Part shown: positions 3,625 to 23,022 of the stretch, piece by piece | How the letters are laid out: the number at the start of each line of letters is the position of its first letter | Numbering within the stretch: position 1 is the first letter of the stretch | Origin: Verrucomicrobiota bacterium | GTDB taxonomy: Bacteria; Verrucomicrobiota; Verrucomicrobiia; Limisphaerales; AAA164-E04 | Reading direction: 5' to 3' | NCBI GenBank assembly: GCA_047947115.1 | Contig: CP170459.1 | Location: 1,376,001-1,440,000 of the forward strand | Length of the DNA: 64,000 nt | The notes under the pieces: generated by a model | Told to the model about the DNA's origin: nothing | Databases searched by the model: none | Seen by the model: only the letters and a program-made list of their open reading frames with translations | Made by a program: the position numbers and the translations under genes

Positions 3625-4767
3625 ATGAAATCAAAGCTCAAGCCTTCCCAACAACGATCACTCATTTTTCCCACACTCTCCGAACAGTGTGATCCGTGGC
3701 AACCACTCAAAAAATTGGCCGACGCCATTCCTTGGGATAAGTTCGAAAACGCTTTTTCGGATTACTACAGCGAGGTAGGCCGGCCCGCCAAACCCATCCG
3801 TTTGATGGTGGGCTTGCTAATATTGAAACAACTTGGAAATTTGAGTGATGAGGTTGTCGTTGAAAGATGGATCCAGAATCCCTACTACCAGTATTTTTGC
3901 GGGATGACGGAATTTGAGTGGGACTTTCCCTGCAATCCATCCGACCTGGTTCATTTTCGAAATCGGATCGGTGAAGAAGGTCTGCATCTGATCTTTGCAA
4001 TTACCACTGACCTTCATCGCAATCGAATTGAAAAGGAGAGTGAGATCAATGTGGATACCACGGTTCAGGAAAAGAACATAACTGTTCTAACGGATAGCAA
4101 ACTACATTCACGGATTATCGGTCGATGCTGGCGCCTGGCCGACAAGTATGGAATCAAACTGCGACGGCGTTATCGCAAAGAGCTGCGAGAATGTTTGCTG
4201 AGCCAAAGGTGGCGGCGTCATCCAGGAAAGGCCAAGCTTGCACGCAAGGCGCAGAAACACATCAAGACAATCGCGGGTATCTTTCTGCGTGAACTGGATA
4301 GAAAATTACCAAGGCAAATCCTTAAAGCTCACCTTGAAGATTTCAAACTTTACCTTCGAGTCCTGAATCAACAGAAGAACGACAAGAATAAGGTCTACTC
4401 TTTGCATGAACCGCAGGCCTACTGCATCGCCAAGGGCAAGGAAAACAAGAAGAATGAGTATGACAGTAAAGCATCGGTCGCCGTGACAGCAGATACAGGC
4501 ATCATTGTCAGTGTTGTTGCTCATCCTGAAAACATTTATGATGGCCATACTTTACCGGAAGTCTTGGAATTAGCGGAAGCTGTCATGGGAGAACGACCGA
4601 AGAAGGGCATTGTGGATCGTGGCTATCAAGGCGAAAAACATCTTGATGGAACGGACATACTTTCACCCGAGAACGGTAAAGCTGAACAAACCTTTATTAT
4701 GCAGCTTGATGAAATCGAAGCGGGACGAGATTTGGATCATTCTGTTTTACAAATTAGCACTTATTAA
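3625..4767 (+). pseudogene. IS5-family transposase, C-terminally truncated and fused at ~4693 to an IS1182-like end
   Basis: GRPAKPIRLMVGLLILK, VDTTVQEKNI, KVYSLHEP, VDRGY; the last 23 aa derive from the IS1182-like right end. Confidence 0.85.
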
Positions 4768-4768
4768 A

Positions 4769-6225: not shown

Positions 6226-6316
6226 CTTATTAAACGGGCTGTTAACTAGCAGCAATACGCATCATAAATCATGCTTGTAAAGAACTCAATAAAACGAAAA
6301 AACACGTAAAAGTAAA

Positions 6317-7144
6317 ATGAAGTCTACACTGTTAAATTTAATAAGGTATTTAATGCGTAAAAATATACTGAATCGAAGTATACTAGATGCAAAAATTTTT
6401 CGTGCCAAATCACCTAAAATATATAAATTGTTTCGAAAATTTAAAGGAAATCGATGTGTTATAATCGGAAATGGGCCTAGTTTAAATGAATGCGATTTAA
6501 AATTATTAGAAAACGAGTTTACCTTTGGGGTTAACGGAATATTTTATAAGACTAAAGAATGTGGATTTAGACCGACATTTTACACGGTAGAAGATAGCCA
6601 TGTAATGCGTGATAACTTAAAAGAAATTATTTCTTTTGAGGCCCCTTATAAATTTTTTCCCACAAATTATTTAAAATATTTCCGTGGTCAAAAGTGTGAC
6701 AATCTTTACTTTTTCAACATGAATAGGGGTTTTTATGAAGTTGCCGGTGATAACTATGAGAAACCTTATATAAGCACTGATTGCAGTGAAGTGGTTTACT
6801 GTGGGCAATCAGTTACAATAATAAATTTACAATTAGCACTTTATATGGGATTCTCGCAAATTTATTTGATCGGTATGGATTTTGATTATGAAATCCCCGC
6901 TTCTGCCATAGTGGAAGGTCAAGATATAACTTCGACAGACTATGACGTAAACCATTTTCATCCTGACTATTTTGGTAAAGGTAAAAAGTGGCACGATCCT
7001 AAATTACATAATGTTTTAAAATCTTACAAACACATTCAGGATGTGGCCAATAAAATGGATGTTAAGATTTTTAACGCTACTAAAGGTGGGAAATTGGAAG
7101 TTTTTGAAAGGGTAAATTATGAAAACGTCTTCAAAGCTACTTAG
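6317..7144 (+). CDS. DUF115/Maf-like (MptE-like) protein, probable glycan-modifying transferase
   Basis: VIIGNGPSL, YMGFSQIYLIGMD, HFHPDYF, IFNATKGGKLEVFERV motifs; AT-rich. Confidence 0.75.
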   Translation: MKSTLLNLIRYLMRKNILNRSILDAKIFRAKSPKIYKLFRKFKGNRCVIIGNGPSLNECDLKLLENEFTFGVNGIFYKTKECGFRPTFYTVEDSHVMRDNLKEIISFEAPYKFFPTNYLKYFRGQKCDNLYFFNMNRGFYEVAGDNYEKPYISTDCSEVVYCGQSVTIINLQLALYMGFSQIYLIGMDFDYEIPASAIVEGQDITSTDYDVNHFHPDYFGKGKKWHDPKLHNVLKSYKHIQDVANKMDVKIFNATKGGKLEVFERVNYENVFKAT

Positions 7145-7973
7145 TTGTGTGTTAACTACACGAGATAAAACAAGCTTTGTTAATTGTTTTATTCAGTCCA
7201 TTGAAAAAAGTAATTTAAGTCAAAAAGTTGAGCTGATTATCATTATTCAAAGCAATTCAGGAATAACTTTTAGTCATAATCGTAACATTGAAATAAAAGA
7301 AATACATACCGGTAATCTTTCATTGAGTAAAGCTAGAAATATAGGTCTACAATATGCTAAAGGTTTAATTGTTTCATTTCCAGACGACGACTGTTTGTAT
7401 GATCGGTATTTAATTAAAAAACTTGAAGAATTGCATCAAAAGTTTTGTGATTCAAGTTTTGTAGGTATTTTAAAAACGTTGGACAACAAAGATCATCCAT
7501 TTTCTGGTAAAATAAAATTACGTAACTTGAGTAAAGTTTTAATTAGTAACTATATTGACATTACCACAAGTGTAACGGTATTCTTTAGGAATAAAAATCT
7601 ACCAAGATTTGATGAAAGATTTGGCTTAGGTGCGAATTTTCCATCTTGTGAAGAACACATATTTACTCAATCACTGCTCTACGGCCAAAAGGACTTAGTT
7701 TTTTGTAAAGAGTTAAAAGTGTTTCATCCGTTGGTTAATTATGATGAGAAGCGGTTGAGGCAAAGTAGCATAGGGCACGGTGCATTTATTGGTCTGCTGT
7801 TTCATAAGTATGGCCTTCTCAATAAATATACTATAAACGCTTTATGGGTGTATTATTTAAGAAATATCGTCGGTCTGTTGTTTTTAAAAAAAACAACACC
7901 CTTAAATTTCAGAAAGATTTTTGTCAAATACAGAATTAAAGGTTTTTGTGAGTTTTTTAAGTGCATTCGTTAG
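7119..7973 (+). CDS. Family 2 glycosyltransferase
   Basis: LSKARNIGL, FPDDDC (DxD), FDERFGLGA. Confidence 0.85.
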   Translation: MKTSSKLLSCVLTTRDKTSFVNCFIQSIEKSNLSQKVELIIIIQSNSGITFSHNRNIEIKEIHTGNLSLSKARNIGLQYAKGLIVSFPDDDCLYDRYLIKKLEELHQKFCDSSFVGILKTLDNKDHPFSGKIKLRNLSKVLISNYIDITTSVTVFFRNKNLPRFDERFGLGANFPSCEEHIFTQSLLYGQKDLVFCKELKVFHPLVNYDEKRLRQSSIGHGAFIGLLFHKYGLLNKYTINALWVYYLRNIVGLLFLKKTTPLNFRKIFVKYRIKGFCEFFKCIR

Positions 7974-8110
7974 CTTACTCCAAACAATTCTTTCACCAGA
8001 AAGGGCCGTATAGTTAAATATCTTTACTGTAGTTGATCCTTAACAGCCCGTTAAAAAAGTCACAATTCTTCACGAAAAGAATCGTGATTGATCACATGAT
8101 CAAGTAAAGT

Positions 8111-9458
8111 GGTTCTTCGATAATTCCAGTGGAATTAACTTAAGCCGGGATTCTGAGTTTGCCTGCTACAAAGTAAAGCATAGTGGTCATGTATACGGAT
8201 GAGCGAAAACCTCTGGCCTTCCGCTTGACCGCGCTGAAAACGCTATTCAATCCTTCCATGAACGCTGTGGTCAGTTTCTTTTTCCAATGAGCAAGTATAC
8301 CTTCCAAGTGACGTTCAATACTGTTTGCCACCTTGACCATTGGTTCCAACAAGTCCCCTGATTTTTTCGCCCTTCGTTTTACCCATCCTATCCATTTGAC
8401 CATGTTTTTTCGCGCTGTAACCTCATTGCGACTGCGATAGACTTGTTGGAAATTTAATCGCATCTGGTAGGCGATTCCGGTTACTAAATTCTTCAAATCC
8501 AATTCCTCTAGCTGCTGGGTTTGACTCTTGGTTAGATTGGAGGGGTTTTTACGAAATATCCAACGACTTGCTATGAGCTCCTTTTTGAAATCCTTGTCTC
8601 CTTGATTTGCTTCGGCTTTGCGCACTTTATCGACTGCGTCATTGACCATGGCCACAGCATGATACTTGTCGAATACAATCTCTGCGTTGCATAGATTCTC
8701 CCTTACTCCCTTTTGATAGGCCGGACTCATATCGATGGCAACTTGAGTGATCGCTTTTGGATGTCCGTTGTGCGCATATAACGCATCAGCAAAGCGTTGG
8801 AATGTTTCAGCGTCTTTGCCCTCGGTGGCAAAAATGACTCGCTTCTCCATCAAATCAGCAAACACCGTCAGGTAATCATGCCCTTTGCGTGCAGACAATT
8901 CGTCCGCACCGATCCAAACCACTTCACTCATATCCAACTTGGAATACGCTTCGTCAACATGGGCAAAAAGAATGCGCCACATGCGTTGATCACACTCTCC
9001 AATCAGTCCTGATGCTTTACTAACCGGCATCTCCCTCATCAATGCCAACGCAAACCCCTCAAACGCCTGAGTAAAATGTTTTCCTTTACCCTCCCAGGGA
9101 ACTTTAACCCGATAGGTTCGGTGACAAGATGGGCATTTGCCGCGAGGCACATTGCAGAGAATTTCAGATCGTTTTCCAAATACATCCATATGTCGCCAAG
9201 ACCTTGTTTCGGTGTGATCGTAACAGGTAATCCCAGACGATTTGCAGGTCTGATGGGGACAAACTTCTTTCTCCCAGAGTTTGTCAGTTTCAGTAATAAC
9301 CATGAAAAACTTTTCCGTCTCTGAATCGTAGTCAACGCCTCGAACTTCCCAACACTCATCAAGTCCCAGCAATCCATGAATGGTCTTCTCAATATTCATG
9401 GAGCCATCATCTCACGACAGTTCCAAATGCTCAATTCCACTGTTTTTGTCGAAGAACC
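8111..9458 (-). mobile_element. ISL3-family insertion sequence
   Basis: IRs GGTTCTTCGA / TCGAAGAACC; 8-bp duplication AGTAAAGT at 8103-8110 and 9459-9466. Confidence 0.92.
8140..9399 (-). CDS. ISL3 transposase, 419 aa
   Basis: Zn-finger cysteines, IGADE, IDMSPAY, FDKYH, EGLNS...KRKARGFR. Confidence 0.92.
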   Translation of the reverse strand: MNIEKTIHGLLGLDECWEVRGVDYDSETEKFFMVITETDKLWEKEVCPHQTCKSSGITCYDHTETRSWRHMDVFGKRSEILCNVPRGKCPSCHRTYRVKVPWEGKGKHFTQAFEGFALALMREMPVSKASGLIGECDQRMWRILFAHVDEAYSKLDMSEVVWIGADELSARKGHDYLTVFADLMEKRVIFATEGKDAETFQRFADALYAHNGHPKAITQVAIDMSPAYQKGVRENLCNAEIVFDKYHAVAMVNDAVDKVRKAEANQGDKDFKKELIASRWIFRKNPSNLTKSQTQQLEELDLKNLVTGIAYQMRLNFQQVYRSRNEVTARKNMVKWIGWVKRRAKKSGDLLEPMVKVANSIERHLEGILAHWKKKLTTAFMEGLNSVFSAVKRKARGFRSSVYMTTMLYFVAGKLRIPA

Positions 9459-9473
9459 AGTAAAGTATTTGCT

Positions 9474-10874
9474 ATGGCACTTGGTAAACGGAAAACGAAA
9501 CAGCAAGAACTGTTCATTGCCTCCAATCAGATTCCCAAAACGCCGGCTCACCCGTTTTACTCCAAATTCAATCAGGTTTTTGATGAGTGCGGATTTGATG
9601 CTTATGTTGAAGAGTTGTGTGCCACGTTTTACAAGAATTTTGGTAGGCCAGGCATTGCGCCCGGAATTTATTTCCGAATGATTTTCATCGGTTACTTTGA
9701 AGGGCTCAACAGTCAACGAGGTATCGCATGGAGATGTCATGACAGCCTTTGCCTGCGTGAATTTCTCGGCATCAGTTTGACGGAGAAAACTCCTGTTCAC
9801 GCATCGATGACAATTATCCGTCAACGCTTGTCCGATGAAGTGTTTCACAAGGTTTTCCATTTTGTCCTTGAACAACTCAAAGAGAAAAAGCTTTTGAAGG
9901 GAAAAACTCTTGGTGTCGATGCTACCACCCTGGAAGCCAATGCAGCCATGCGTAGCATCGTGCGCAAAGGCACAGGTGAGGATTGGAAAGAATACCTTCG
10001 TGAACTGGCCAAAGAAGAAGGCATTGAAAATCCGAGTGATGAGGACATTCAGCGCATCGCCCGAGGGCGCAAGGGGAAGAAAGTTTCCAACAAAGAATGG
10101 CAAAGCAAGTCAGATCCGGACAGCCGCATTACCAAGTTGAAAGATGGGCGCACATATCTTGCATATAAGGCTGAACATTCGGTGGACTTGGAAACCGAGG
10201 CAATTGTTTCTTGTCATGTCACTCATGCAGATCAAGGCGATACAACCACGGGGCCTGAGAGCCTCATCTTGGCTGAAGCCAATCTACAGTTAATCGAATC
10301 AGAAAGGACCGTTGAAGAAGCGGTGATGGACAAGGGATATCACAGCAACGCATTGTTGGAACGGCTCACGCAGTGGGGTATCCGCACATACATTCCAGAG
10401 AAGAAGCAAAAGAAGCGTAAGTGGGTGGACAAACCGGAATCCTACGAACACGCATTCCGCGGTAATCGACGAAGAGTTCGGAGTGACAAGGGTAAGCGAC
10501 TGAGTCGAAAACGAAGCGAACTTGTGGAGCGAACATTTGCTCATGTGTGCGAAACCGGAGCTGGACGTCGAACCTGGCTCCAGGGAATGGAAAATGTCAC
10601 CAAGATTCACACACTGAAGTGCGCAGCATTCAACCTCGGATTGCTGATACGGAAAATCTTTGGCCTCGCCAAGCCAAGAAACTGGGAAGCGAGCCTCGCT
10701 ACCGCTTTGGCGGCCGTTTTTTTCATGATTTTTGGCGAATGGATGACTCAGGGGGCGATAAGAATGGCTCCCGCCGACCTTTTACTGATTTCCACCATTT
10801 TATTATGCAGCTTGATGAAATCGAAGCGGGACGAGATTCGGATCATTCTGTTTTACAAAATTAGCACTTATTAA
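9474..10874 (+). CDS. DDE transposase (IS1182/IS5-like), 466 aa, copy 2
   Basis: Near-identical to 633-2033. Confidence 0.88.
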   Translation: MALGKRKTKQQELFIASNQIPKTPAHPFYSKFNQVFDECGFDAYVEELCATFYKNFGRPGIAPGIYFRMIFIGYFEGLNSQRGIAWRCHDSLCLREFLGISLTEKTPVHASMTIIRQRLSDEVFHKVFHFVLEQLKEKKLLKGKTLGVDATTLEANAAMRSIVRKGTGEDWKEYLRELAKEEGIENPSDEDIQRIARGRKGKKVSNKEWQSKSDPDSRITKLKDGRTYLAYKAEHSVDLETEAIVSCHVTHADQGDTTTGPESLILAEANLQLIESERTVEEAVMDKGYHSNALLERLTQWGIRTYIPEKKQKKRKWVDKPESYEHAFRGNRRRVRSDKGKRLSRKRSELVERTFAHVCETGAGRRTWLQGMENVTKIHTLKCAAFNLGLLIRKIFGLAKPRNWEASLATALAAVFFMIFGEWMTQGAIRMAPADLLLISTILLCSLMKSKRDEIRIILFYKISTY

Positions 10875-10887
10875 ACGGGCTGTTAAA

Positions 10888-12104
10888 GTGTGCCGTGAAA
10901 AGGTGCGAACCTCCAGTGGGAGAGGAAACTAATCTCCCCCGGCAACTTTCGCTCCAACCGGTAGCAGTCGAGGCAGACGTGGAAGCAATGAAGCGGCTGA
11001 AGCCCTGGGTGTAAAAGGCCCGAATTTAGTTGTGGGTCAGCGAGCGAGCAGGCCGTAGTACGAATGAACACTGAGCAAGTCCCAAATCCAGACAGATGCG
11101 AATGCCGACCTAGCTTTAAGATAGGGAAGGTTGCCATTGCGTGGGAAGTGAGCGAAAACCGCACCACGCAAGTTCGCCGGGGCATTGGTGACGGCATGTT
11201 CGTGAAAGGAGATTCGTCGCAACACGGGACGTCCCATTATGTGGCCCTAGAAGCCATCTCATAAATAAATATTGTACTTATAACGATAAAGTATAGTGGT
11301 TATGGATGGACTTGAGCGAAGTACAATGGAACATCGTTAAAGACATCTTACCAGTAGACCCTGTAAGGGAAGATCGACGCTGTCGTCCTTGGAGTGACAG
11401 ACGGAAAATACTGAATGGAATCCTTTGGATTTTGTGAACCGGTGCGCCATGGAAAGACATGCCTCCACGGTATAGAACTTATCAAACCGTTCATCGTCGG
11501 TTTCAAAACTGGGTTCAGGATGGAGTCCTCGAAAAACTCCTTTTTGCCATCGCCAAAGATCTGCAGGAACGAGGCGGTTTGGATCTCAGTGAATGTTTCA
11601 AAGACGGCACTTTCGTGCCGGCCAAAAAGGGGGTACCTCGTCGGCAAAACAAAGCGAGGCAAGGGCAGCAAGATCATGGCAATTGCAGACGGCGCTGGTC
11701 TTCCTGTCGCCATATGCGCAGCCAGTGCTTCGCCAGCTGAAGTAACGCTGGTTCAGTATACCATAGAGCATAGAGTCGTAGAGGATACACCTGAAAAACT
11801 GATCGGGGACAAAACCTATGATAGTGATCCATTGGATCAAGGAATTGAGGAAATATTCGGAACTGAAATGATAGCGCCAAATCGTCGAGGGCGGAAAAAA
11901 TCCAATCAAACACAGGACGGTCGTAAACTGAGGCGATACAAACGACGATGGAAAGTCGAACGTCTGTTTGCTTGGCTCTTCAACTTCAGGCGACTGGTTG
12001 TACGTTACGAATACGATGCTGTAGATTTCATCGGGTTCATCCACCTTGCCTGTGCGATGATACTAATGAGGCATTTATGAGATAGCTTCTAACAAAGGAC
12101 CACC
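10888..12104 (+). mobile_element. 5' fragment (domain I region) of a second group II intron copy, interrupted by an IS at 11248-12091 and truncated
   Basis: GTGTGCCGTGAAAAGG start; 10888-11247 highly similar to 32-392; same EBS1 at 11115-11120; ACAAAGG resumes after the IS. Confidence 0.88.
11248..12091 (+). mobile_element. IS5-family (IS427-like, two-ORF) element with an inactivated transposase
   Basis: IRs TAGAAGCCATCTCATAAAT / ATTTATGAGATAGCTTCTA; orfA from 11306 has a premature TGA at 11435; AAAAAGGGGG frameshift motif at 11624-11633; orfB has GDKTYD and [11 protein letters not shown]. Confidence 0.88.
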
Positions 12105-12755
12105 CTCCAAAGTGTCGGAACGCATTTTCCAGACATCGGATGAAAGCATCAGTAATCTGTCGCCACACATCTTTACTGTATGCCTTTCTGGAATGACTGA
12201 GAACAATCCGGAACAGGTGAGGACGCTTTCGCTTTCCTTCGACATAAGTCCAGGCACCCTGCCCAAAATCCACCTGAGCTTCCTCTCTCGGGTCGCATTC
12301 CATGCGCCGGAACGGCAGCTCTGTGGTTTGGTTAAGGCGTTGGACAAAGCGTTTAACCGAATCATAACTCCCCTGGAAAGCATGTTCACTGACCAAGTCC
12401 TGGTAAATCCTCTGTGCCTTCAGGCCTTGCTTTAACCATTGGAGGATCTGTTCACCAAAGGGTTCACACTCACTACGGCGACCTGTTGAGCCGTGGGGCG
12501 AAATGGCTGCATTTGGAGGAGGCGAAGCCAGATAACGGCTGACGGTTCCTCGGTCGATCTCCAATTTACGGGCAATCTCCCGCATGGAGAGGCCCTGTTC
12601 ATGTAATACGCGTATGGAATGTTGCTTGTGAACTTTGAGTTGATTCATCGCCCTCTGGAAAACCTTTGTGGCCCTCCAAAAGCAACGATTTTATCACCTC
12701 AAAGTGGCTGCATTTGATTCGTCCCTAGGTGGCTGTATTTGACCGCCCGCTGACA
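12100..12755 (-). mobile_element. istA: IS21-family left end with truncated istA
   Basis: End TGTCAGCGGGCGGTCAAA at 12755; HTH SMREIARKLEIDRGTVSRY, SYDSVKRF, EAQVDFG, LSHSRK, AFRHFGG, then breaks off. Confidence 0.85.
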
Positions 12756-12864
12756 CCACGACTGCAGCAGCTGGATTTGGACCGCTAAGAATAGCGGCAG
12801 TGAAGGAATCAGGGTGAGCATCAAAACCGATCACCCGAGAAGTATTTATTGCATCATTGATCAT
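12756..12864 (-). pseudogene. N-terminal 36 codons of an IS110-family recombinase, cut by the IS21 end
   Basis: MINDAINTSRVIGFDAHPDSFTAAIL resembles the first strand of the RuvC-like DEDD domain (IG-x-D-x-H). Confidence 0.65.
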
Positions 12865-12878
12865 AGTCAGTGAGAGTA

Positions 12879-13080
12879 TGCAGGCAGACTGAAAGCTGGC
12901 AGGCGAATACATGCACTCAGGTATGCGGGGCGGTCCCCATGTAGGTGCTTTTCGCCATCACTCATTCTCAGAAACGGAGATAAAACTCCAAGCGAACTCT
13001 ACGAGTGTATCCAGCACGGCCACCTGCGGTTTAGCCTACCAACAGGTCCTGAGGGTGCCAGTCTTTCAGTCTTACTTGCA
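12879..13080 (-). ncRNA. Candidate IS110 bridge RNA in the non-coding left end
   Basis: Long closing stem 12880-12901 / 13056-13079 enclosing three hairpins, two with large internal loops; lies directly upstream of the IS110-like start codon. Confidence 0.55.
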
Positions 13081-13133
13081 ACTATTGTTGCTATCCGAGT
13101 GTGCAGGGCGCCCCGATGACAAACAACATACCC

Positions 13134-13442
13134 TCACAGAGAGGAAGCAGGGGAGTTGATGGTTTATTTTGAACAGTTCTGTCGAACCGCTCAAAATAAA
13201 CTATCAAACTATCAGTCCCGCAGGGGCAATGCTGCTTCTTAGCGATTACGTTCGCCCTTACTGAGGGTTTAATCGAATGCGTATGTTTTGCTCTCCGTAA
13301 ATTCAGTTAACTTTCGAAACATTTTCAGTGGGGGGGCTTTTGATTTCTTTGCTATTTCACGGAAATCGTAAAGAAATCAAAAACTCCTTTCTCCTCTGTG
13401 GCCCTCTGTGCTCTCAAGTGAGGGACCGAACGGGTGGTGGAA
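13134..13442 (+). repeat. Hairpin repeat element copy A (left arm truncated)
   Basis: CACAGAGAGG remnant, 52-nt hairpin 13156-13207, second hairpin, right arm CTCAAGTGAGGGACCGAACGGGTGGT. Confidence 0.8.
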
Positions 13443-13469
13443 AAACGTATCAGTGACGATCCGTTCTAC

Positions 13470-15569
13470 CTATTGATCTCCCGCGGTCACCATTTTGATC
13501 GCGCAGAGGATCACGAAGAGGTGCATGATGGATACGACTTGTAGAGGAAAATCGAATAGGGCGTGGAGGAGGCAGCCTGCGATGGCGAGGTTGAGACCGA
13601 TGCGGAGCCAGCCGGCGCTTATCAATCCGGTCTGAGATTTTAAAGGCAGCAGGGTTAATCCCACTAGCATTAGGCCAGGGATGGCTCCGAACAGGCCGAA
13701 AGTGATCCAGTATTCGAGCCAGTCACAGTGAACCCAGGCATCCCATACTTCGTCTGCGTCATGATAAAGGAAATAGACGGTGGACCAGGCACCGGATCCG
13801 CAGCCCAGCCACCGGAAGTCTTTAGCCATGCGCCAGGAATCTTCGTAGATGCGGTCGCGGGAGCTTGACAGTGATGCGAGTGCGGTCAAACTCCATTTTC
13901 TCGTTAAATCAATTGTGACGGTTTGTTGAGAGATCTTAGATTCACTTTCCTTATTAGCGATAGGTTGTATGCTGAATAAGCGGCCTTCGAGGTCCGGTTC
14001 GCCGGTCTTGATGGTCGCTGTTTTGTTTACATAGACCTCGTTGGGGATGATGGGGTGATCCCATGTGGGGGGAGTTGGGCCTGATCTTTTTTCGATGCCT
14101 TCAAGTGTTGTATCATTTACTTGGACCGATAAGCCTTCTGCTCCACGTACTACCTTCAGGTTTAGAAACCCCGTTTCGAGATACTCGATCAAGTTAGTGA
14201 ACGTGGTGTTGACGTGGCTTTTTGTTTTGGCGTTGTAGAGTAGGATCCTCAGATTTCCATTCTTGTAAAGGATTGAGTTTAGATATCCTTTTCGGAACTT
14301 GCCGTTTTGAGAATCTGTGATGAGGAATAGTTGAAGGTTTCGATCATAGGGAGGAGGTGGCAGTTGGCATTCACAGGTGATAGTTTCGGCGGTGCTCGCT
14401 TGTTCTATCTGTGTTTCGTGCCATGGATTCTGGGAATTTAATCGTTTTAAGAGTGGTTCCCAGCCAATGTAATAGGATAAACCAATTCCTGCTACCATGA
14501 GGACGGCAAATCCCATGCGTTGGCGTCCTTTGAGGAGGTGGGGTTTGATCAGGATGAGGGCGATGCCTGCGGCCAGTAAGAATCCCAGTATGACAAATCC
14601 GCCACGACTTAGGGAAACGAAAGGAGCCGCTACCATCATGCAGACGGCGGGGATCAGGGTGAAATGTGATTCGCTTCCTTTGCTTCCGGTTTGCATGCGG
14701 ATGGAGCGTGCTCTCTGGATGGCCCACATCAGGAAACCAATACAGATCGGCAGAACCATGTTGAGGTAGGTGGCCCCATTGCCTCGGTAACCAAAGGGGC
14801 CAAAGCTTTGTGTGGAAGTGCCAAATCGCGGACGTTCATAGAGCCAGAGGAGCTTTGGGGTGCCGTCCAGGCGCTGAACGATGCCAATCAGTGCGAGACA
14901 TCCACCGCTGATGCACAGAAGCCAGAGTAGCCGGTTCAGGCGGATAGGGATGGATGGAGCTGAAAGGTCTTTATCAAAATACGGATTTGATTCTTCGTCC
15001 GGTTCACTTGAGTCCGTGCGTTCTTTCCTGGTTTTACCGAGGAGCCAATCCCGGAAACCCCAAAAGCAGCAGGCCAATCCCAGAAAATTCAGAAAACTCT
15101 GGATGGTGGCGGATTTGTCGTAGGTGTGGGGGAGCCATTGGATGTAGTTTTCATTGTAGTTTTCGAAAAAATTGAATTCGTGGTTGAAGGTGGCTCGGAC
15201 GTTTAGAATGGATATGAGGATGTAGCCTAACATGTAAATTGTCAGTGCGGCGACGGCCTTGGTGCGCCAGTCTCTCTTTTGAGGGTGGGTGGTGCTTTGG
15301 CCGTTTTTTTGTGTCGTCCAGCGGGGTGGGTAGTAGCCGGTTGTATAGCGGATAGCCCATTTGGTCAGGAGGAGTGCACCTATTCCGTAGTTAGCAAGGT
15401 TCATCGTCAGGATGGCCCAGTCGTGGACGGTGCCGAATGCCCAGGGGCCCCAGAGGATGGTGAAATAGATCAGTGCTTCTGTGGCAATGTCCGCCCAGCG
15501 GTAGAGTTTGGGGGTGCGGCTGTGTGTGCGGTGCGGGCGCTTTTTGGAACCTGTGTTGGAAATGTTCAT
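13470..15569 (-). CDS. O-antigen ligase (Wzy_C) family membrane protein, 699 aa
   Basis: Many hydrophobic segments, FGPFGYRGN, SLSRGG, GCGSG, VHCDWLE, LLHALFDFP. Confidence 0.85.
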   Translation of the reverse strand: MNISNTGSKKRPHRTHSRTPKLYRWADIATEALIYFTILWGPWAFGTVHDWAILTMNLANYGIGALLLTKWAIRYTTGYYPPRWTTQKNGQSTTHPQKRDWRTKAVAALTIYMLGYILISILNVRATFNHEFNFFENYNENYIQWLPHTYDKSATIQSFLNFLGLACCFWGFRDWLLGKTRKERTDSSEPDEESNPYFDKDLSAPSIPIRLNRLLWLLCISGGCLALIGIVQRLDGTPKLLWLYERPRFGTSTQSFGPFGYRGNGATYLNMVLPICIGFLMWAIQRARSIRMQTGSKGSESHFTLIPAVCMMVAAPFVSLSRGGFVILGFLLAAGIALILIKPHLLKGRQRMGFAVLMVAGIGLSYYIGWEPLLKRLNSQNPWHETQIEQASTAETITCECQLPPPPYDRNLQLFLITDSQNGKFRKGYLNSILYKNGNLRILLYNAKTKSHVNTTFTNLIEYLETGFLNLKVVRGAEGLSVQVNDTTLEGIEKRSGPTPPTWDHPIIPNEVYVNKTATIKTGEPDLEGRLFSIQPIANKESESKISQQTVTIDLTRKWSLTALASLSSSRDRIYEDSWRMAKDFRWLGCGSGAWSTVYFLYHDADEVWDAWVHCDWLEYWITFGLFGAIPGLMLVGLTLLPLKSQTGLISAGWLRIGLNLAIAGCLLHALFDFPLQVVSIMHLFVILCAIKMVTAGDQ

Positions 15570-15581
15570 GAGGTTTGCTTA

Positions 15582-15730
15582 TTCACCACCCGTCCCGCAT
15601 TCGCGGGACTAGAGGACACAGAGGTTCGAGAGAGGTTAAAGAAGTAAGTTAGGGCAAGAGTTGATGGTTTTATTACGGGATGTTCAACAGAACATCCCGT
15701 AATAAAACCACAAGCTACCAATCCTGCGGA
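15582..15730 (+). repeat. Hairpin repeat element copy B (left arm + hairpin)
   Basis: TTCACCACCCGT...AGAGGACACAGAG, hairpin 15661-15713, CCTGCGG tail. Confidence 0.8.
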
Positions 15731-15880
15731 GAGTAGGTCCTTATAGGAGTATGCTGTGGTAAATGCGGGAGGCATTGTTATTGTTTGGTTGAGCATGTGC
15801 CGTGTTTGTTTTGGTGATCTGTTTCCGAGTATCATCTTGGTCGTGATTGAAATGTCAATCTTCTGTGGATGTGAGTTTAT

Positions 15881-16235
15881 TAACCACCCGTCTTGCTGCG
15901 CGCGACTTGAGGACACAGAGATGGAGGAGAGGAGTTGAAGAATCATTTCAGCGCGTTCTCCAAACGAACTGAAATGATTCTTCAAACCATCGGCCTTGCA
16001 GGCGGCAATAATGATTCACAACCGGTATGATAATTTTATGTGAAAGAAATGTCTTGAAGACTCCCAATGCCCTCTGAAACGAGTGTAACCCCATCAGCAA
16101 TCGAATTCTTTTAAGTGTGATACTTTTTGGTTTACTTTGTTATGACGATCATGAATAGCCAAGAAAACCAAAAGCCTTTTCTTAAATCTCTTTGGCCCTC
16201 TGTGTTCTCAAGTGAGGGACCGAACGGGTGGTGAA
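15881..16235 (+). repeat. Hairpin repeat element copy C (complete)
   Basis: Left arm ACCACCCGTCTTGCTGCGCGCGAC, hairpin 15935-15985, right arm ending ACGGGTGGTGAA. Confidence 0.82.
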
Positions 16236-16336
16236 AAATGAACGAGCACGCCGTCTCCACGAGTCTGACGTGATGTAAATGGTCTGAAACGAGTCTTGAG
16301 GCATGTCGGCCTTCTGGCATAGCATCTTGAGTGACA

Positions 16337-18475
16337 ATGTTACAAATTCTGCAGAACATAAAGACTGGTGAAACGATGTTGGCCGAGGTGCCTGCGCCTA
16401 TGGTGCGGTCGGGGTCTCTTTTGATCGCCACGCATTCCAGTCTTGTTTCTGCTGGGACGGAGCGGATGTTGGTGGATTTCGGTAAGTCGGGGTGGATTCA
16501 GAAGGCTCGGAGTCAACCCGATAAGGTCCGGGCGGTGATTGATAAGATCAAGGTAGATGGGCTGAAGCCGACTCTTCAAGCGGTTCAGTCCAAGTTGGAT
16601 CAACCTTTACCAATGGGGTATTGTAATGTCGGATCTGTCCTTGAGGTGGGGAATGGTGTTCCACCGGCCGAGTTTGCTGTGGGGGATCGGGTGGTTTCGA
16701 ATGGGCATCATGCGGAGATGGTTTGTGTTCCCAAAAACCTCTGTTGCAAGGTGCCTGATGGTGTCAGTGATGAAGAGGCCGCTTTTACGGTTGTTGGGGC
16801 GATCGGATTGCAGGGCATTCGATTGTTGCAGCCCACTTTGGGGGAGTCGGTGGTTGTCACTGGATTGGGATTGATCGGATTGCTTTGTGTTCAGATGCTG
16901 CGCGCCAATGGGTGTCGGGTGCTTGGAATTGATTTTGATTCTTCAAAGTGTGCCTTGGCGCAGGCTTTTGGAGCTGAAACGGTGGATTTGTCAAAGGGGG
17001 AAGATCCTGTGTCCAAAGCAATGACCTGGACTCGGGGGAGAGGGGTGGATGGAGTTTTGATCACCGCTTCCACAAAAAGTAATGATCCGGTGCATCAGGC
17101 CGCTTTGATGTCCCGTAAACGTGGGCGGATCATTTTGGTCGGAGTGGTTGGATTGGAGCTTTCCCGTGCTGATTTTTATGAGAAGGAACTGAGTTTTCAG
17201 GTAAGTTGCAGTTACGGCCCTGGTCGATATGACGCTCAGTATGAAGAACAAGGGATTGATTACCCTCTGCCCTTTGTTCGTTGGACCGAGCAGCGGAATT
17301 TTGAAGCGTTTCTGGATTTGCTGACTCAAAAGGCTTTGGATCTATCCCCGTTGATCACGCATCGTTTTGAACTGAAGGATGCCTTAAGGGCGTATGAAAC
17401 TGTGGGCAACAAAGAGGGAATTGGTATTGTCATTCAGTACCCTGGAGACAACCGCAAATTGGCGTCCACCAGTCTTGCTCGGTCAATTGACCTGAAAACC
17501 GAGAAGCGTTCGTCCGTTGGCAAGGTTGGTTGTAGTGTCATTGGGGCTGGCAATTTCACGCGCCAAACGTTGTTGCCTGCCTTGGCGCAAACTTCAGCAA
17601 GGCTCCGGACTATTGTTTCAAGCGGAGGGGTGACCGCATCGGATTTGGGTCGTAAATTTAAATTCGAACGCGCCGCCACGGATACCAAGGAAGTGTTCAA
17701 GGATGACGCCACGAACTTGCTGGTCGTCACCACCCGTCATAATACTCACGCGTGTTTTGTGAAGGATGCCATTCAGCTCAACAAGGCTGTATTTGTCGAA
17801 AAACCGTTGTGTTTGAAACGCTCCGAGCTTGAATCAATTGTGGGAGATTACCAAGCGGCAAAAAGTCCCTTCGTCATGGTGGGGTTCAATCGACGCTTCG
17901 CTTCGCTCATCACGTCCATGGCATTACTGATTCAGGCCAGGAGTGAGCCAAAGTCGTTTATTTATACCGTGAACGCCGGGTGCATTCCTCCCGATCATTG
18001 GACACAAGATCCGGAGGTTGGTGGAGGCAGGTTGTTGGGTGAGGGATGCCACTTTATTGATTTGTTAAGATTTTTGGCGGGTAGCAGCATTGGTTCTGCC
18101 AAAGTGTCTTACACCACACCAAATGGGCTGGATACGCAGGATACTTTTTCCATTCAGATATCTTTCGCGGATGGAAGTATTGGAACTGTTCACTACTTTG
18201 CAAATGGATCCAAAAGTTTCCCAAAGGAACGTCTGGAGGTGTTTTGCGGAGGGGGCGTGCTGCAGTTGGATAATTTCCGGACACTGCAGGGGTTTGGTTG
18301 GAAGGGGTTCTCCAAGCAGAAATCTGGAGGTCAGGACAAGGGGCACAACGCTGAATTGAAGGCAGTGGTGGATGCCCTGGAGCAGGGTAAGCAGGCTCCC
18401 ATACCGTTCGATGAGATTGTGGAGGTGACGGATGTTTCCTTGGCGTTGGTGGAGGTAGGGGAATACTTTAGGTAG
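16337..18475 (+). CDS. Bi-domain oxidoreductase (Zn-ADH-like + Gfo/Idh/MocA), typical of polysaccharide loci
   Basis: SLVSAGTE, GLGLIG, SCSYGPGRYD, IGAGNF, VFVEKP, VGFNRRF, GEGCHFID. Confidence 0.9.
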   Translation: MLQILQNIKTGETMLAEVPAPMVRSGSLLIATHSSLVSAGTERMLVDFGKSGWIQKARSQPDKVRAVIDKIKVDGLKPTLQAVQSKLDQPLPMGYCNVGSVLEVGNGVPPAEFAVGDRVVSNGHHAEMVCVPKNLCCKVPDGVSDEEAAFTVVGAIGLQGIRLLQPTLGESVVVTGLGLIGLLCVQMLRANGCRVLGIDFDSSKCALAQAFGAETVDLSKGEDPVSKAMTWTRGRGVDGVLITASTKSNDPVHQAALMSRKRGRIILVGVVGLELSRADFYEKELSFQVSCSYGPGRYDAQYEEQGIDYPLPFVRWTEQRNFEAFLDLLTQKALDLSPLITHRFELKDALRAYETVGNKEGIGIVIQYPGDNRKLASTSLARSIDLKTEKRSSVGKVGCSVIGAGNFTRQTLLPALAQTSARLRTIVSSGGVTASDLGRKFKFERAATDTKEVFKDDATNLLVVTTRHNTHACFVKDAIQLNKAVFVEKPLCLKRSELESIVGDYQAAKSPFVMVGFNRRFASLITSMALLIQARSEPKSFIYTVNAGCIPPDHWTQDPEVGGGRLLGEGCHFIDLLRFLAGSSIGSAKVSYTTPNGLDTQDTFSIQISFADGSIGTVHYFANGSKSFPKERLEVFCGGGVLQLDNFRTLQGFGWKGFSKQKSGGQDKGHNAELKAVVDALEQGKQAPIPFDEIVEVTDVSLALVEVGEYFR

Positions 18476-18498
18476 TTTGGATCGCCCCTGATACATGT

Positions 18499-18637
18499 TT
18501 CACCACCCGTCTTGCTGCGCGCGACTAGAGGACACAGAGATCACAGAGTTTTTTGGGGGGAGGGGAGTTGAGGTTTTATTTTGGGATGTTCGATCGAACA
18601 TCCCAAAATAAAACCTCAAAGTCTCAGCCCTGCGGGC
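18499..18637 (+). repeat. Hairpin repeat element copy D (left arm + hairpin)
   Basis: Left arm; perfect 52-bp palindrome 18568-18619; CAGCCCTGCGGGC tail. Confidence 0.82.
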
Positions 18638-18737
18638 AAGGTAGCTCCGATAGTCTCTGATCGGAAGGTCTCCAATAGCCTAGTGTTTTCTTGAAACAAA
18701 TGGAGGGTGTTCTAGCCTGACTTGGTAAGCTCATTTT

Positions 18738-19007
18738 ATGAAACACAGTCACATGACCAAGAAGAAACATTCGGGGCATGCAGAAAAAGAGAAGACCTAC
18801 GAGACGTCTTTTCGCAGCCATCACGATGTATTATTTGCCAAGCCGGAACATGTGGCGGCAAGTATGCCAACCAAACCATCCAAGCGACTATTGGGGGTGG
18901 ACGAAGGATTGGTGCATTTCTCTGAGGATTGGGATTCAGCTGAGACCAATCAGGAAATTGCCCGGATGTTTGGATTGGATCACTTGGATGATGCCCATAC
19001 CCTGTGA
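18738..19007 (+). pseudogene. Probable antitoxin remnant
   Basis: C-terminal KRLLGVDEGLVHFSEDWD...EIARMF resembles tails of Phd/DUF2281-type antitoxins; no toxin follows. Confidence 0.4.
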
Positions 19008-19607
19008 ATCCTTATGAATTTGCAATGGAAGAGCAACAGGCAATTAAACTCTCAAGGCTTCCCGCGTTCCGGGTTTCTTGCTTAGGGAAGTTTTTAGGTT
19101 GAAGTATGGGTACGGGGTGGCACCCGTCCCTCCGGTTTTGTTACTACAGCAATTAGAATATGTCATTAATTGATATCATCGCAGGGGCCAGACCCAATTT
19201 CATGAAGATTGCACCGATTATTCGGGCGATCAAGCATTCTCAATCGTTGGGTGGAACGTTAGAGTATCGCCTCGTTCATACGGGGCAGCATTACGATGAG
19301 CGGATGTCGGCGAGTTTTTTCAAGCAGTTGGGAATTCCTGATCCGGATATCAATCTCGAGGTGGGATCCGGGACTCAGGCCGAGCAGACGGCGAAGATCA
19401 TGATGCGTTATGAGGCATTGCTTTTGGAGAAGCCATCCAAGCTTTGCCTGGTGGTGGGGGATGTGACGAGCACCATGGCGTGTGCGATAGCGGCTCAAAA
19501 GTTGTGTGTTCCGGTGGCGCATGTGGAGGCGGGGATTCGGTCGGGTGATTGGTCCATGCCCGAGGAAATCAACCGGATGGTGACGGATTCGATCACCAAT
19601 TACTTTT

Positions 19608-21139
19608 GCCTCTTCTTCAGAATCTGTGGGTAAATTTAGGTTCGGGTAGTTCACCCATTGTGTGAAAAAGGGCTATTTTAAGCACTTCAAAGCTACGATA
19701 GCCGTAGGCTTTTCTGGTAGTCAGATTTATTTTGCGGTTCAAACCCTCAACAACTCCCGACGAAATAGTCTTTTTGGCCCTGAACCAATTCAGGATCAGC
19801 GGCTGATGTTTTCGTAGGCTGCTGGCAAATTTCTTGATGGGTTCCAGACGTGAGCGCATAGCTCTGGTGCACCACTTGTTCAAATACCACTCAGCCCAAT
19901 ATGGGCTAGTGTAATTCCAAAAGAACTCAAATGCTTCTTTGAGCAAAAATGCCCGAACACTTTTCAGATCATACTGGAGGACTTCCTCCAGCTTAATCTT
20001 TTGATTGGGCGTGAGGTTCTCACGACGTTTGAGAAAGCAGTATTTGGTGTGTTTAAGCACTTCCTGGTATCCGTCCTGACGCATCTTACGCGCTTCGACC
20101 GCCCTGACTTCATTGATTGCTTTGTTCAGATTGGCTACGATATGGAAGCGATCCAACACGTGGAGGGCGTGTTCGAGTTTTTCCTTAATCACATTGAGAT
20201 AAGGTTTCCACATGTCCGAACAAACAAATTGAATGGACTCAAGTTGCTTTTGAGTGAGGATCTTAAAAAAATCCCGAAGGGATTGCTCGGTTCTCTCCTT
20301 GGTGACGCTTAACAATCGGCGCGTGCCTTGATCTATCTGGTAAACCACCGTCAGATACTTTTGCCCCTTTCCAAAATGCACCTCATCAACTCCGATGGCA
20401 TTAATATCGTCCAAACTCCTGTGCTTCAAGCCGTATTCAACAATGGAAGCAACGGACCGATACACCGATTGCCAACTGACTTCAAAGGTCTGGGCAACTT
20501 CTTTCCATGAAAGTTTCCGAGCCCACTGTGCAAGGAAGTGTTCCATGACACAGGTTATCCGGCTTTTTCCTTTGGCCCAAGGAACCGATTCGATGACAAC
20601 ACCGTCATTGGGGCAGTTAACTCTTCGCATCCGGTATTCAAGAAACACCGGCCACCCCCATAAGGGGATGAATCGAAACTTTCGTTTTCCAGGACGATGG
20701 TCATAGGTGGAAGCACTACGATTGCACTTTGAACATACTGGGCGGCTGTTTTGCCGTGGTTCAACGCTTACGACAATAGCTTCGACTCCTTCAACTTCCT
20801 GGAAGCATGCTTGGCGATAGACAAAGGATTTGAATTTATGGCAACGATTGAGCAAGGTTTTCAACAGCATCGGCAATCTTTGACGAGGTTTGTTTTGGCG
20901 ACGCCATGTTGAGGAGATTGCCGATGCTTTTCGAATAAAAATCCTCTGGGTTTTTCTTGGAGAAAAACCACACCACCCGTAGGCCCTCTCGCGTCGTGGA
21001 AGTCCAGGAAAACATCATATAAGTGCCGAAGGCCGACTCCGCGTCAGCGGGGGAGTTATGCTGATGTTTTACTGGACTGGAACAGAGCGATAGGGCATCC
21101 CGACGTGCTCAATTTACCCACTCTTTTTTGAGAAGACCC
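19608..21139 (-). mobile_element. ISL3-family insertion sequence (distinct from 8111-9458)
   Basis: Imperfect IRs sharing TCTTCT...GTGGGTAAATT; 8-bp duplication TTACTTTT at 19600-19607 and 21140-21147. Confidence 0.9.
19617..20876 (-). CDS. ISL3 transposase, 419 aa
   Basis: CSKC...CP, IGVDE, CSDMWKPY, LDRFH, VEGLN...RKAYGYR. Confidence 0.92.
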   Translation of the reverse strand: MPMLLKTLLNRCHKFKSFVYRQACFQEVEGVEAIVVSVEPRQNSRPVCSKCNRSASTYDHRPGKRKFRFIPLWGWPVFLEYRMRRVNCPNDGVVIESVPWAKGKSRITCVMEHFLAQWARKLSWKEVAQTFEVSWQSVYRSVASIVEYGLKHRSLDDINAIGVDEVHFGKGQKYLTVVYQIDQGTRRLLSVTKERTEQSLRDFFKILTQKQLESIQFVCSDMWKPYLNVIKEKLEHALHVLDRFHIVANLNKAINEVRAVEARKMRQDGYQEVLKHTKYCFLKRRENLTPNQKIKLEEVLQYDLKSVRAFLLKEAFEFFWNYTSPYWAEWYLNKWCTRAMRSRLEPIKKFASSLRKHQPLILNWFRAKKTISSGVVEGLNRKINLTTRKAYGYRSFEVLKIALFHTMGELPEPKFTHRF

Positions 21140-21846
21140 TTACTTTTTTACCACCAGCCAATACGCGAATAAAAATCTCAAGTCCGCTGGTATTTCTGAT
21201 GACAGGATCTTTTTTGTCGGAAATACCATGATTGATACGTTGTTGCATGAGATGGATCGGTTTTCGGCTCCGGATTGCTTTGAGTCTTTGGGGTTGGTTC
21301 AGGGGAATTACATCGTCCTGACTCTGCATCGTCCCGCCAACGTGGATGCAGAACAGCACTTGACCAAAACTCTGGAAGCGATCATGCAGCATGCGGGTGA
21401 TCTGCCGGTTGTTTTTCCGGTTCATCCACGGACTGCAAAGCAGTTGGAACATATTCATACGGCATGGGATAACCTGCATTGTGTGGAGCCATTGCCGTAT
21501 CTGCAGTTCAATTATTTGGTCAAACACGCGAAAGCGGTCATCACGGATTCGGGTGGCATCACCGAGGAGACGACGGTGATGGGGATTCCTTGCATGACTT
21601 TGCGTGATTCCACGGAGCGACCGGAAACGGTGGATGTTGGGACGAACGAGTTGATTGGGACCAATCCTGAACGCATCCCGCCGGCCATGGAACGGCTGCT
21701 TACAGGCCAGTGGAAGAAGGGGGCAATCCCCGAAAAGTGGGATGGCAAGGCCGCGGAGCGGATTGTGGAAGTGCTGGAGAGGTGTGTTTGAGTGTGGAGT
21801 TTTTTTAATTCTCATCCCGCGAGGCGGGACGGGGGCGCCGAGTTTT

Positions 21847-21990
21847 TTCACCACCCGTTCGATTCCTCACTTGAGGGCACAGAGATCACAGAGAGTGGAG
21901 GGGAGTTGGGGTTATATTTCAGCTCGTTTTGACAAACGAGCTGAAATATAACCCCAAAACTATCAGCCCTGCGGGCGGCAACAATGATTC
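21847..21990 (+). repeat. Hairpin repeat element copy E (left arm + hairpin)
   Basis: Left arm ACCACCCGTTCGATTCCTCACTTGAG; hairpin 21906-21957; tail. Confidence 0.82.
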
Positions 21991-22063
21991 GTCACGGAAA
22001 TGTTCATCGAGCATGTTCGGGAGTGCGGCGGCTTTTAGATTGGTATCCAATGGAAAGTGATTC

Positions 22064-22369
22064 TTAATCTCGCGCCAGTCGTTTACGCCACTTTTTGGGG
22101 TCTTGTGAGCAATGAAACACTGCGTAAACGACGATTCCGTCTTCTAAAGGTTCGTAAAAAATTTCGAATGGAAAGCGTTGAATTGTAGCGTGGCGAAATT
22201 CATCAATAGCAACCGGAAACAGGTGGGGGTGGTCTTTTATGATGGTAAGGCCCTTTTCCACAGATTGTAGAAAATCCTCGCCAAGTCCCTCCTCCCGACT
22301 CTCATACCAATCAAATGCATCAGAGACGTCCTGCTCAGCTTCTGGAATAAAGATGATCCTGCTAATCAT
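22064..22369 (-). CDS. RelE/ParE-family toxin
   Basis: EAEQDVSDAFDWYE...GLGEDF...RFPFEIFY...AVFHCSQDP. Confidence 0.85.
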   Translation of the reverse strand: MISRIIFIPEAEQDVSDAFDWYESREEGLGEDFLQSVEKGLTIIKDHPHLFPVAIDEFRHATIQRFPFEIFYEPLEDGIVVYAVFHCSQDPKKWRKRLARD

Positions 22370-22583
22370 GTTTATTGCGTATACTCTCTTTGACTTGAGA
22401 CCAGAGTCGTCCTGAAGAGGGTTGGGCAAGGAAACCTTCTTTTCTATTTCTCAACACATCTTGTTTTGCTTCCGAGACAGGCAGCTCGGATTCTTCTCGA
22501 GCGATGCTATCCCATAGATCTTCAACTAGCTGAATCCGTTCTCCTCGAGGGAGCTTTAGAAGATGCTCTAATGTCGTATCCAT
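22362..22583 (-). CDS. Addiction-module antitoxin (TIGR02574-like)
   Basis: LPRGERIQLVEDLWDSI...WSQVK; overlaps the toxin start. Confidence 0.85.
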   Translation of the reverse strand: MDTTLEHLLKLPRGERIQLVEDLWDSIAREESELPVSEAKQDVLRNRKEGFLAQPSSGRLWSQVKESIRNKHD

Positions 22584-22681
22584 GCTGAGTAATGTATATC
22601 GAGAACGTTCGGTCTTCAAGATGGACTTTCAATGTCTGCTTTTGAGTTTTTGGACGACATTCAATATCCGAACACCTTTTC

Positions 22682-23022
22682 TTCACCACCCGTCTTGCTG
22701 CGCGCGACTAGAGGGCACAGAGTTCACAGAGAGGTAGAGGGGAGTTGGGGTTATATTTCAGCTCGTTTTGACAAACGAGCTGAAATATAACCCCAAAAAG
22801 ATCAGCCTTGCAGGCGGCGATTACGTCCGCTCTCTTACTGAGTTCTAAATTGAATAGGTATGAACTCCCGTGGTTTTGGCCCACGCAAATCCAGATAACT
22901 TTCGAATCCTTTTAAGTGCAGTAACTTTTTGATTTCTTTGCTATTTCATGGAAATCGTTATGAAATCAAAATTTCCTCCGTGCTCTCTGTGTTCTCAAGT
23001 GAGGAATCGAACGGGTGGTTAA
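22682..23022 (+). repeat. Hairpin repeat element copy F (complete)
   Basis: Left arm, hairpin 22745-22796 identical to copy E, internal part similar to copy A, right arm. Confidence 0.82.

Follow-up and report, generated by a model that had tools for sequence, protein, structure and literature searches.

Why hairpins of nearly constant length and strongly differing sequence recur, all in one direction, between the genes of a polysaccharide locus is the question raised by a stretch of Verrucomicrobiota DNA (GenBank assembly GCA_047947115.1, contig CP170459.1, positions 1,376,001 to 1,440,000), referred to here at its full 64,000 nucleotides as the window. It corresponds to G000:C1:1376001-1440000 of the host genome (G000), which is a single contig of 6.08 Mb. 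The original prediction, made from the letters of the window, described six copies of a repeat, each with a left arm and a TTG...CAA hairpin, and all six are present. The evidence tilts modestly toward reading this repeat as a gene-less unit with the arms of GxxExxY nuclease genes and two DNA hairpins, whose copies at gene junctions are likely recombination joints that reshuffle sugar-pathway and toxin-antitoxin genes.

Units in one locus and their GxxExxY arms

The left arm consists of ACCACCCG, a small hairpin insert, CTAGAG and tandem CACAGAG 9-mers, in that order. In a full unit it is followed by a purine tract, a first hairpin of about 52 nt (HP1), a TCAGCCC tail and a variable run of repetitive extragenic palindromic (REP)-like modules headed by GTAG. 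The distal part comprises an A/C-rich spacer, the TTTTAAGTG motif, a related second hairpin of 44-50 nt (HP2) and an inverted arm. HP1 and HP2 have a T-rich block in common (TTTTATTT, TTTTCTTT) and may represent opposite ends of a single symmetric ancestor. Within 49 spacers 5' of the TTTTAAGTG motif (e.g. window positions 22850-22909), AA dinucleotides recur, in an uncontrolled count, with a period of about 9-9.5 nt, which would suit a spacer that arose by decay of a tandem 9-mer arm.

The units of the window are listed in Table 1. The predicted pairing of HP1 is perfect in units D, E and F and is interrupted by 2-4 mismatches in the other three. Units A, C and F do extend to an inverted right arm, and the second hairpin that had been noticed in A and F occurs in both and also in C. 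The size proposed for complete units (about 340-355 bp) was too narrow: unit C measures 350 bp and unit F 335 bp, and the 11 complete units of the genome range from 295 to 467 bp. Unit length is therefore not fixed; hairpin geometry alone is.

Covariance models run over the whole genome found more copies than had been reported, 15 of HP1 and 16 of HP2, every one of them in a single orientation in one locus of polysaccharide and toxin-antitoxin genes. Likewise, 19 of 20 blastn match clusters across the genome fall within one 57-kb locus (1,341.7-1,355.3 kb and 1,389.1-1,399.0 kb). By manual reading of the main cluster, which extends from the GDP-mannose dehydratase gene as far as tRNA-His, 13 of 16 gene junctions are occupied by a unit, whole or half, and the three unit-free junctions lie inside coupled gene pairs. 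The genes between units encode sugar-nucleotide enzymes, an O-antigen ligase, a helix-turn-helix (HTH) regulator and toxin-antitoxin proteins (MNT, HEPN, RelE, HicA/B, AbiEii-like and ParE), one 75-aa gene among them being presumably HicB-like. Between the two unit clusters lies a 34-kb glycosyltransferase core (G000:C1:1355500-1389000) that is rich in insertion sequences (IS), lower in GC and devoid of units; the clusters that bracket it could serve as anchors for exchanging this core as a whole. At the locus, some 200 kb from the origin, the sense strand is the leading, G-rich strand.

The arms of the unit are the same as those that flank genes of the GxxExxY nuclease (TIGR04256, PDDEXK_3). 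At least 122 stretches of the genome collection match the arm pattern, frequently arranged in short inverted pairs; they belong to Verrucomicrobiota, Chlamydiota, Desulfobacterota, Planctomycetota and other phyla. An inverted partner lies within 400 bp of 98 of 138 arms, and bare arms are dispersed in some other genomes. GxxExxY was found in 34 of 36 tested arm-bearing genomes and in 103 of 201 genomes of Verrucomicrobiota, a comparison that spans phyla and in which related genomes are not independent. Of 29 scorable GxxExxY genes, 23 have inverted flanks exceeding all 200 shuffles. The present arm stands on both sides of the gene in two loci (L285 and L294), and in a third (L161) two such arms enclose an internally deleted copy.

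GxxExxY is also present as a gene inside related arrays (L241, L181, L218 and G002), in two of the four directly after the epimerase gene. In a tree, two array-borne GxxExxY proteins group with that of L299 (support 94/87), whose gene is also followed by this arm, and not with the solo copy of the host genome. The predicted fold of GxxExxY (pLDDT 96.7) is a minimal PD-(D/E)XK nuclease, nearest to Cas4/RecB-like proteins with weak scores (best Foldseek E 0.003, best Z 7.8), which show the nuclease fold only; a sequence search found no solved structure among its relatives. Derivation of HP1 and HP2 from the coding ends of GxxExxY was considered and found no support. In the literature searched, largely outside subscription journals, there was no account of GxxExxY arms or of these hairpins; a paper that names GxxExxY does so in passing.

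Other arms and similar designs occur as well. Polysaccharide loci of Pontiella (L056) and a member of the Desulfuromonadaceae (L047) carry arms and toxin-antitoxin genes and have no HP1. Outside the locus, the host genome has three gene-less short inverted pairs of the plain CACAGAG arm (G000:C1:2706095-2706180, 5178080-5178150 and 6035175-6035265), all without inserts or long hairpins. Two genes for four-helix-bundle proteins (TIGR02436; G000:C1:3302400-3303000 and 2824200-2824640) lie between inverted arrays of 7-nt tandem words, and show the gene-plus-arms design with another protein family.

Hairpin geometry, covariation and strand

Unit F folds with z = -8.1 and -7.7 on its two strands (100 shuffles). 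Among 26 aligned HP1 copies, 88.8% of cells are paired and 18 of 22 pairs vary on both sides; none of 500 shuffles equalled the observed covariation, and slid controls paired at 34-48%. Pairing of an HP1 arm amounts to 0.84 with the partner in its own copy and to 0.60 with one from another copy, and 116 of 163 departures from the consensus are mirrored on the other arm (36 expected), both values including two mis-anchored rows. In a held-out metagenome test, whose search pattern constrained part of the stem only, 32 of 87 matches paired at 18 or more of 24 positions; by a motif test the left arm lay upstream of 31 of these, the 32nd having a variant arm, and of none of the other 55. The claim that pairing and length are kept while the sequence varies was borne out.

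Addition of the metagenome loci gave 68 distinct HP1 and 58 distinct HP2 sequences, the former in a centre-based register. The same even centre is found in 61 of 68 HP1 sequences, and the tail motif lies exactly 30 nt from the centre in 49 of 68. In HP2, the motif lies 30.5-32 nt from the centre in 48 of 51 cases, whereas the distance from HP2 to the arm ranges from 22 to 78 nt, and hairpin-to-arm distances in general vary by tens of bases. Since spacing is fixed to the inner motifs and variable to the arms, the hairpins are coupled to the former and not to the latter. Within HP1 the paired share is 93% close to the loop, drops to 58% at positions 7-10 and is 90% further out.

Covariation by itself is no proof of selection, because template switching can generate multibase compensatory changes and loop inversions, as set out in the available portion of PMC8794818. 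Copy D has the centre GACT in L178 and AGTC, the reverse complement, in L177, with the hybrid GATC in the window; the loop thus has opposite orientations in L177 and L178, on perfect stems that are nearly the same apart from it. This inversion suggests that part of the covariation is a product of template switching. In the same two loci, copy D is followed by extra tandem modules, one of which matches G000:C1:1491830-1491948, and by a CopG/PIN toxin-antitoxin pair that is missing from the window.

It could be argued that the hairpins are neutral passengers altogether, i.e. a chance palindrome within a GxxExxY-arm repeat that was spread by gene conversion and kept symmetric by template switching alone. 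The flipped loop speaks for this view, as do the scarcity of G-T/G-U intermediates (8 of 572 cells hold a one-sided wobble against 105 two-sided changes) and the four genomes of the genus, out of seven, in which no hairpin was matched (79-93% complete). However, length and motif spacing are fixed in copies that are about 60% alike while adjacent tracts vary freely, the poorly paired zone persists between two well-paired ones, and the strand bias of HP1 described below opposes the expected mutation bias. Neutrality is unlikely on these grounds. If the hairpins are neutral after all, they offer a clear natural case of template switching that mimics RNA-style covariation.

The conserved blocks of HP1 and HP2, two per half-site and about one helical turn apart, would also suit duplex sites at which a dimeric protein, for instance the HTH regulator of the locus or a serine recombinase, binds or makes crossovers. 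Two site classes (52 and about 49 bp) and a GbsR/CudC-like HTH gene in the array (match below the cut-off) agree with such a role. Mirrored variation, on the other hand, is unneeded for binding and would be destroyed by crossover between unlike copies, strand bias is meaningless for a duplex site, and the array-bearing loci showed no recombinase gene. Duplex sites are the least probable of the readings considered.

The mismatches that remain in HP1 differ between strands. Read on the sense strand, the 68 sequences hold 95 A·C and 22 G·T mismatches (52 and 22 after relatives are collapsed), and A·C is in the majority in 16 of 23 HP1 clusters against 3, with 4 ties. These mismatches are G·T wobbles on the antisense strand, which points to HP1 as a DNA rather than an mRNA structure. 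With RNA parameters, too, the antisense strand gives the better fold for 51 of the 68 HP1 sequences. C-to-T changes on the leading strand would favour the mismatch class opposite to that seen in HP1. The bias of HP2 is reversed (60 against 38; 48 against 29 after collapsing, p 0.04), a lean that fits the symmetry of the unit and also local mutation bias.

Strand evidence bears directly on the part of the original prediction that spoke of structured RNA or single-stranded DNA. Units could act in operon mRNA and adjust expression gene by gene, whether as stabilisers, as attenuators or as sites for RNase III: they follow the operon direction in G000, G002 and G007, HP2 folds slightly better as sense RNA, and stems of 22-24 bp suit RNase III. 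REP arrays are also described beside exopolysaccharide genes of Thauera in the accessible part of PMC3733652. For HP1, sense RNA is disfavoured both by the mismatches and by the folding, and one-sided wobbles are far fewer than two-sided changes. Promoter and terminator patterns were not enriched (3 promoter-like against 10.4 expected, 16 terminator-like against 12.0), and a search of Rfam with the repeat gave no match at the gathering score, in keeping with the original prediction, which recognised no named family in it. A function in mRNA is very unlikely.

Strain variation and a proposed mechanism

Matches to the long hairpins were confined to this genus. HP1 is present in three of seven other genomes of the genus (G002, G004 and G007), which were also the genomes matched family-wide by the HP1 and HP2 models (one weak partial match in G008 was uncounted); across the order (151 genomes) the matches were in G000 and G007 only. 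Filters were stricter and genomes incomplete in these searches, and unmatched genomes are to be taken as "not found" rather than "absent". HP1 also occurs in 31 metagenome loci, of which the larger ones all hold polysaccharide or toxin-antitoxin genes. Viral contigs gave no arm match and three HP1-pattern matches, none of them scored by the HP1 model. The public runs that hold this stretch come from marine, estuarine or marsh samples.

Comparison of strains supplied the empty site that had been sought, at one position. In L190 the stop codon of the MNT gene overlaps the start of the HEPN gene, whereas in the host genome the two genes are separated by a unit that has ACGTGA on either side, i.e. 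a filled and an empty site with a 6-bp duplication. Hairpins and genes have both been exchanged between strains: hairpins differ at sites with near-identical flanks (ten low identities in this comparison are register artefacts of odd-centre hairpins and were ignored), gene order is altered in L233, L196, L227 and L176, and some strains are without certain genes. Breakpoints do not share a single base; they were located in REP modules, in arms, in the motif and in outer repeats. Scattered breakpoints together with exchanged hairpins and genes fit homologous recombination and gene conversion among copies. Joints between units in public-run contigs, which are assembly graphs over repeats, were not used as evidence.

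A mechanism that would account for these features can be outlined. The unit most probably spread as a gene-less element with GxxExxY arms, landing at gene junctions as GxxExxY genes do, and gathered other repeat modules. By analogy with RAYT/REP and Ssn/NTS, GxxExxY would act on the arms and spread the unit. HP1 and HP2 probably extrude as single-stranded or cruciform DNA, and a protein, GxxExxY or other, would read the fixed motif together with the two-turn stem. Nicks or breaks at the hairpins would drive homologous recombination between copies, and template switching would maintain the match between both arms of a hairpin. The arms, the hairpin geometry, the strand bias and the variation among strains are observed; what we infer in this scheme is which enzyme acts, that it cuts, and any advantage for the host. 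A bolder version, and a more doubtful one than neutrality, is integron-like shuffling without an integrase, in which a domesticated GxxExxY (or a partner) cuts single-stranded hairpins of fixed geometry at almost every gene junction and arm-to-arm repair keeps re-dealing surface-polysaccharide and toxin-antitoxin genes.

Besides the limits of the genome comparison given above, several observations weigh against a unit that GxxExxY moves and recombination reshuffles. The host genome has a single GxxExxY gene, which belongs to a clade with another arm (arm labels by eye) and lies 2.4 Mb from the array. Where arrays do hold the gene, it lies between units, outside a left-to-right pair, whereas the usual layout is arm-gene-arm. 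The HP1 model gave nothing convincing in 88 other loci, GxxExxY loci included, and HP1 and HP2 keep their distance to the inner motifs, not to the arms, with no enzyme tied to either. A shared flanking word of at least six letters occurs at 3 of 11 complete units, with one plausible duplication, and those six base pairs were also required to leave both overlapping genes intact. The strand bias of HP2 is weak and agrees with local mutation bias. Finally, strain rearrangements come from short-read assemblies that are possibly chimeric at repeats.

GxxExxY is widespread (103 of the 201 Verrucomicrobiota genomes sampled) and has no described function in the literature searched. The locus supplies it with a candidate set of substrates in a biological setting, namely 68 HP1 and 58 HP2 natural variants together with the arms. 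If the hairpins are read by shape on one strand, they would be a natural structure-defined DNA site beside attC, and such reading would account for the accumulation of short repeats and toxin-antitoxin genes at polysaccharide loci.

Table 1. Coordinates in the window of the repeat units, their parts and the genes between them.
Feature	Position	Strand	Details
Unit A	13134..13438	+	truncated left arm; HP1 13156-13207; tail 13212-13224
Unit A, right part			TTTT[A/C]AGTG motif 13322-13330; HP2 13338-13382; right arm 13394-13438
O-antigen ligase-like gene (Wzy_C), between units A and B	13470..15569	-	E 1e-10
Unit B (half)	15585..15735	+	left arm; purine tract; HP1 15661-15713; degenerate tail
Unit C (complete)	15883..16232	+	left arm; HP1 15935-15985; tail; spacer
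Unit C, right part			motif 16109-16117; HP2 16125-16173; right arm 16188-16232
Zn-dehydrogenase/GFO oxidoreductase gene, between units C and D	16331..18475	+	
Unit D (half)	18502..18668	+	left arm; perfect 52-nt HP1 18568-18619; tail; one GTAG-headed REP-like module from 18640
UDP-GlcNAc 2-epimerase gene	19160..21791	+	interrupted by ISL3 element
GxxExxY site of G002 and L218	21792..21846	.	short degenerate arm-like stretch only in the window
Unit E (half)	21850..21975	+	left arm; perfect HP1 21906-21957; tail
Addiction-module antitoxin and ParE toxin pair, between units E and F	22064..22619	-	
Unit F (complete)	22685..23019	+	left arm; perfect HP1 22745-22796; tail; spacer
Unit F, right part			motif 22910-22918; HP2 22927-22971; right arm

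The surroundings of these units hold many mobile sequences. Window positions 1-13130 are dense in IS and group II intron fragments, with ISL3, DDE and IS21-like genes and with intron matches to RF02003 (64-207 and 10920-11063) and RF00029 (3373-3521). The truncated arm of unit A is adjoined by a 72-aa open reading frame (12694-12912) without a Pfam match, which we take to resemble an IS110 N-terminus. The ISL3 element in the epimerase gene spans 19600-21139; an ISL3-free allele exists, as contigs from three public runs bridge the site, where 8 letters fit either side.

Comparison with known systems

Each left-to-right unit could be regarded as a very large attC-like site for the integron integrase of the genome, whose cassette cores are GGT/ACC. 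As far as the available text of PMC5027507 describes attC sites, the outline is alike: hairpins that form in single-stranded DNA and are poorly conserved in sequence separate small genes in a one-way array, with toxin-antitoxin cargo and a G·T excess on the bottom strand. All 11 units start with ACC and end with GGT, and RYYYACC fits 7 of the 11 left ends. GTT/AAC is also present in HP1, where it adjoins the loop, the wrong end for an attC core. However, GGTRRRY fits only 3 of the 11 right ends, and the units, at 295-467 bp, lack the layout of R box, unpaired spacer and extrahelical bases: pairing continues through the core, and a bulge or register shift occurs in 5 of 68 HP1 sequences only. 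No integrase is adjacent, GxxExxY genes of other phyla are flanked by these very ends, one toxin-antitoxin pair is split by a unit, and breakpoints lie in several modules, away from GGT. The integron of the host genome (G000:C1:739000-742214, integrase at 741 kb) is 0.6 Mb distant, and its cassette sites, which include CCTACC/GGTAGG cores, are unrelated in sequence to the repeat. An attC identity is accordingly given very little credence, less than a role in mRNA.

Other gene families of the host genome were examined as partners. The RAYT, integrase, four-helix-bundle and GIY-YIG genes are neither beside the array nor flanked by its hairpins. A miniature transposable element with inverted repeats (MITE) of a DDE insertion sequence was rejected, with one plausible 6-bp duplication among 11 units and no blastn link to IS ends of the genome. 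The absence of a cognate transposase from the window, stated in the original prediction, was confirmed.

Ssn/NTS resembles the present system in several respects, so far as the available part of PMC11893778 describes it. A single-domain nuclease is flanked by its own oriented hairpin repeats, clusters lie beside cell-surface genes, and a conserved motif stands 5' of the hairpin on one strand. In contrast, Ssn is a GIY-YIG protein, and its repeats (SRMs) are 20-50 nt long and conserved in sequence. According to the same portion of that source, changing the SRM stem with the fold kept abolishes Ssn activity, whereas the stems described here vary freely. The SRM consensus has 21 matches in the host genome and none in the locus. 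Of four GIY-YIG matches in the genome, the three short ones are flanked by neither arms nor long hairpins. Two short GIY-YIG genes (G000:C1:3010900-3011400 and 3758700-3759300) are each bordered by a tRNA on one side and by a duplicate of that tRNA's 3' part on the other, and one of these duplicates carries the small hairpin insert of the arms and tails of this repeat.

REPIN/RAYT systems (REPtrons) and bacterial interspersed mosaic elements (BIMEs), as presented in the accessible parts of PMC3337134 and PMC3733652, share with the present unit an inverted pair of short repeats around a spacer in intergenic position (11 complete units here), gene-less copies beside copies that flank one small enzyme gene, and mosaics of several REP modules. 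GTAG at the foot of short, clustered hairpins is a further likeness to BIMEs and GTAG REPs, and it is confined to the inner modules, not extending to the arms, HP1 or HP2. There are also differences. The partner here is a PD-(D/E)XK nuclease and not an HUH tyrosine transposase, each arm is built of tandem 9-mers and contains a hairpin insert, two long hairpins that covary make up part of the interior, and copies are confined to one locus rather than dispersed through the genome. The linked HUH/RAYT gene that had been looked for was not found: the host genome has five Y1_Tnp matches, no arm copy lies near any of them, and the best three are without these arms, the best being flanked by another GTAG repeat. 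A REPIN- or MITE-like non-autonomous unit was thus a sound description in that the repeat is gene-less and keeps stem shape over sequence, while its arms are of the GxxExxY type instead of the RAYT/HUH type. The system resembles REPIN/RAYT, BIME and Ssn/NTS without their flanked gene, SRMs or genome-wide dispersal, and it is likely a REPIN/BIME-like mosaic that is tied to a different nuclease and whose copies are recombination joints.

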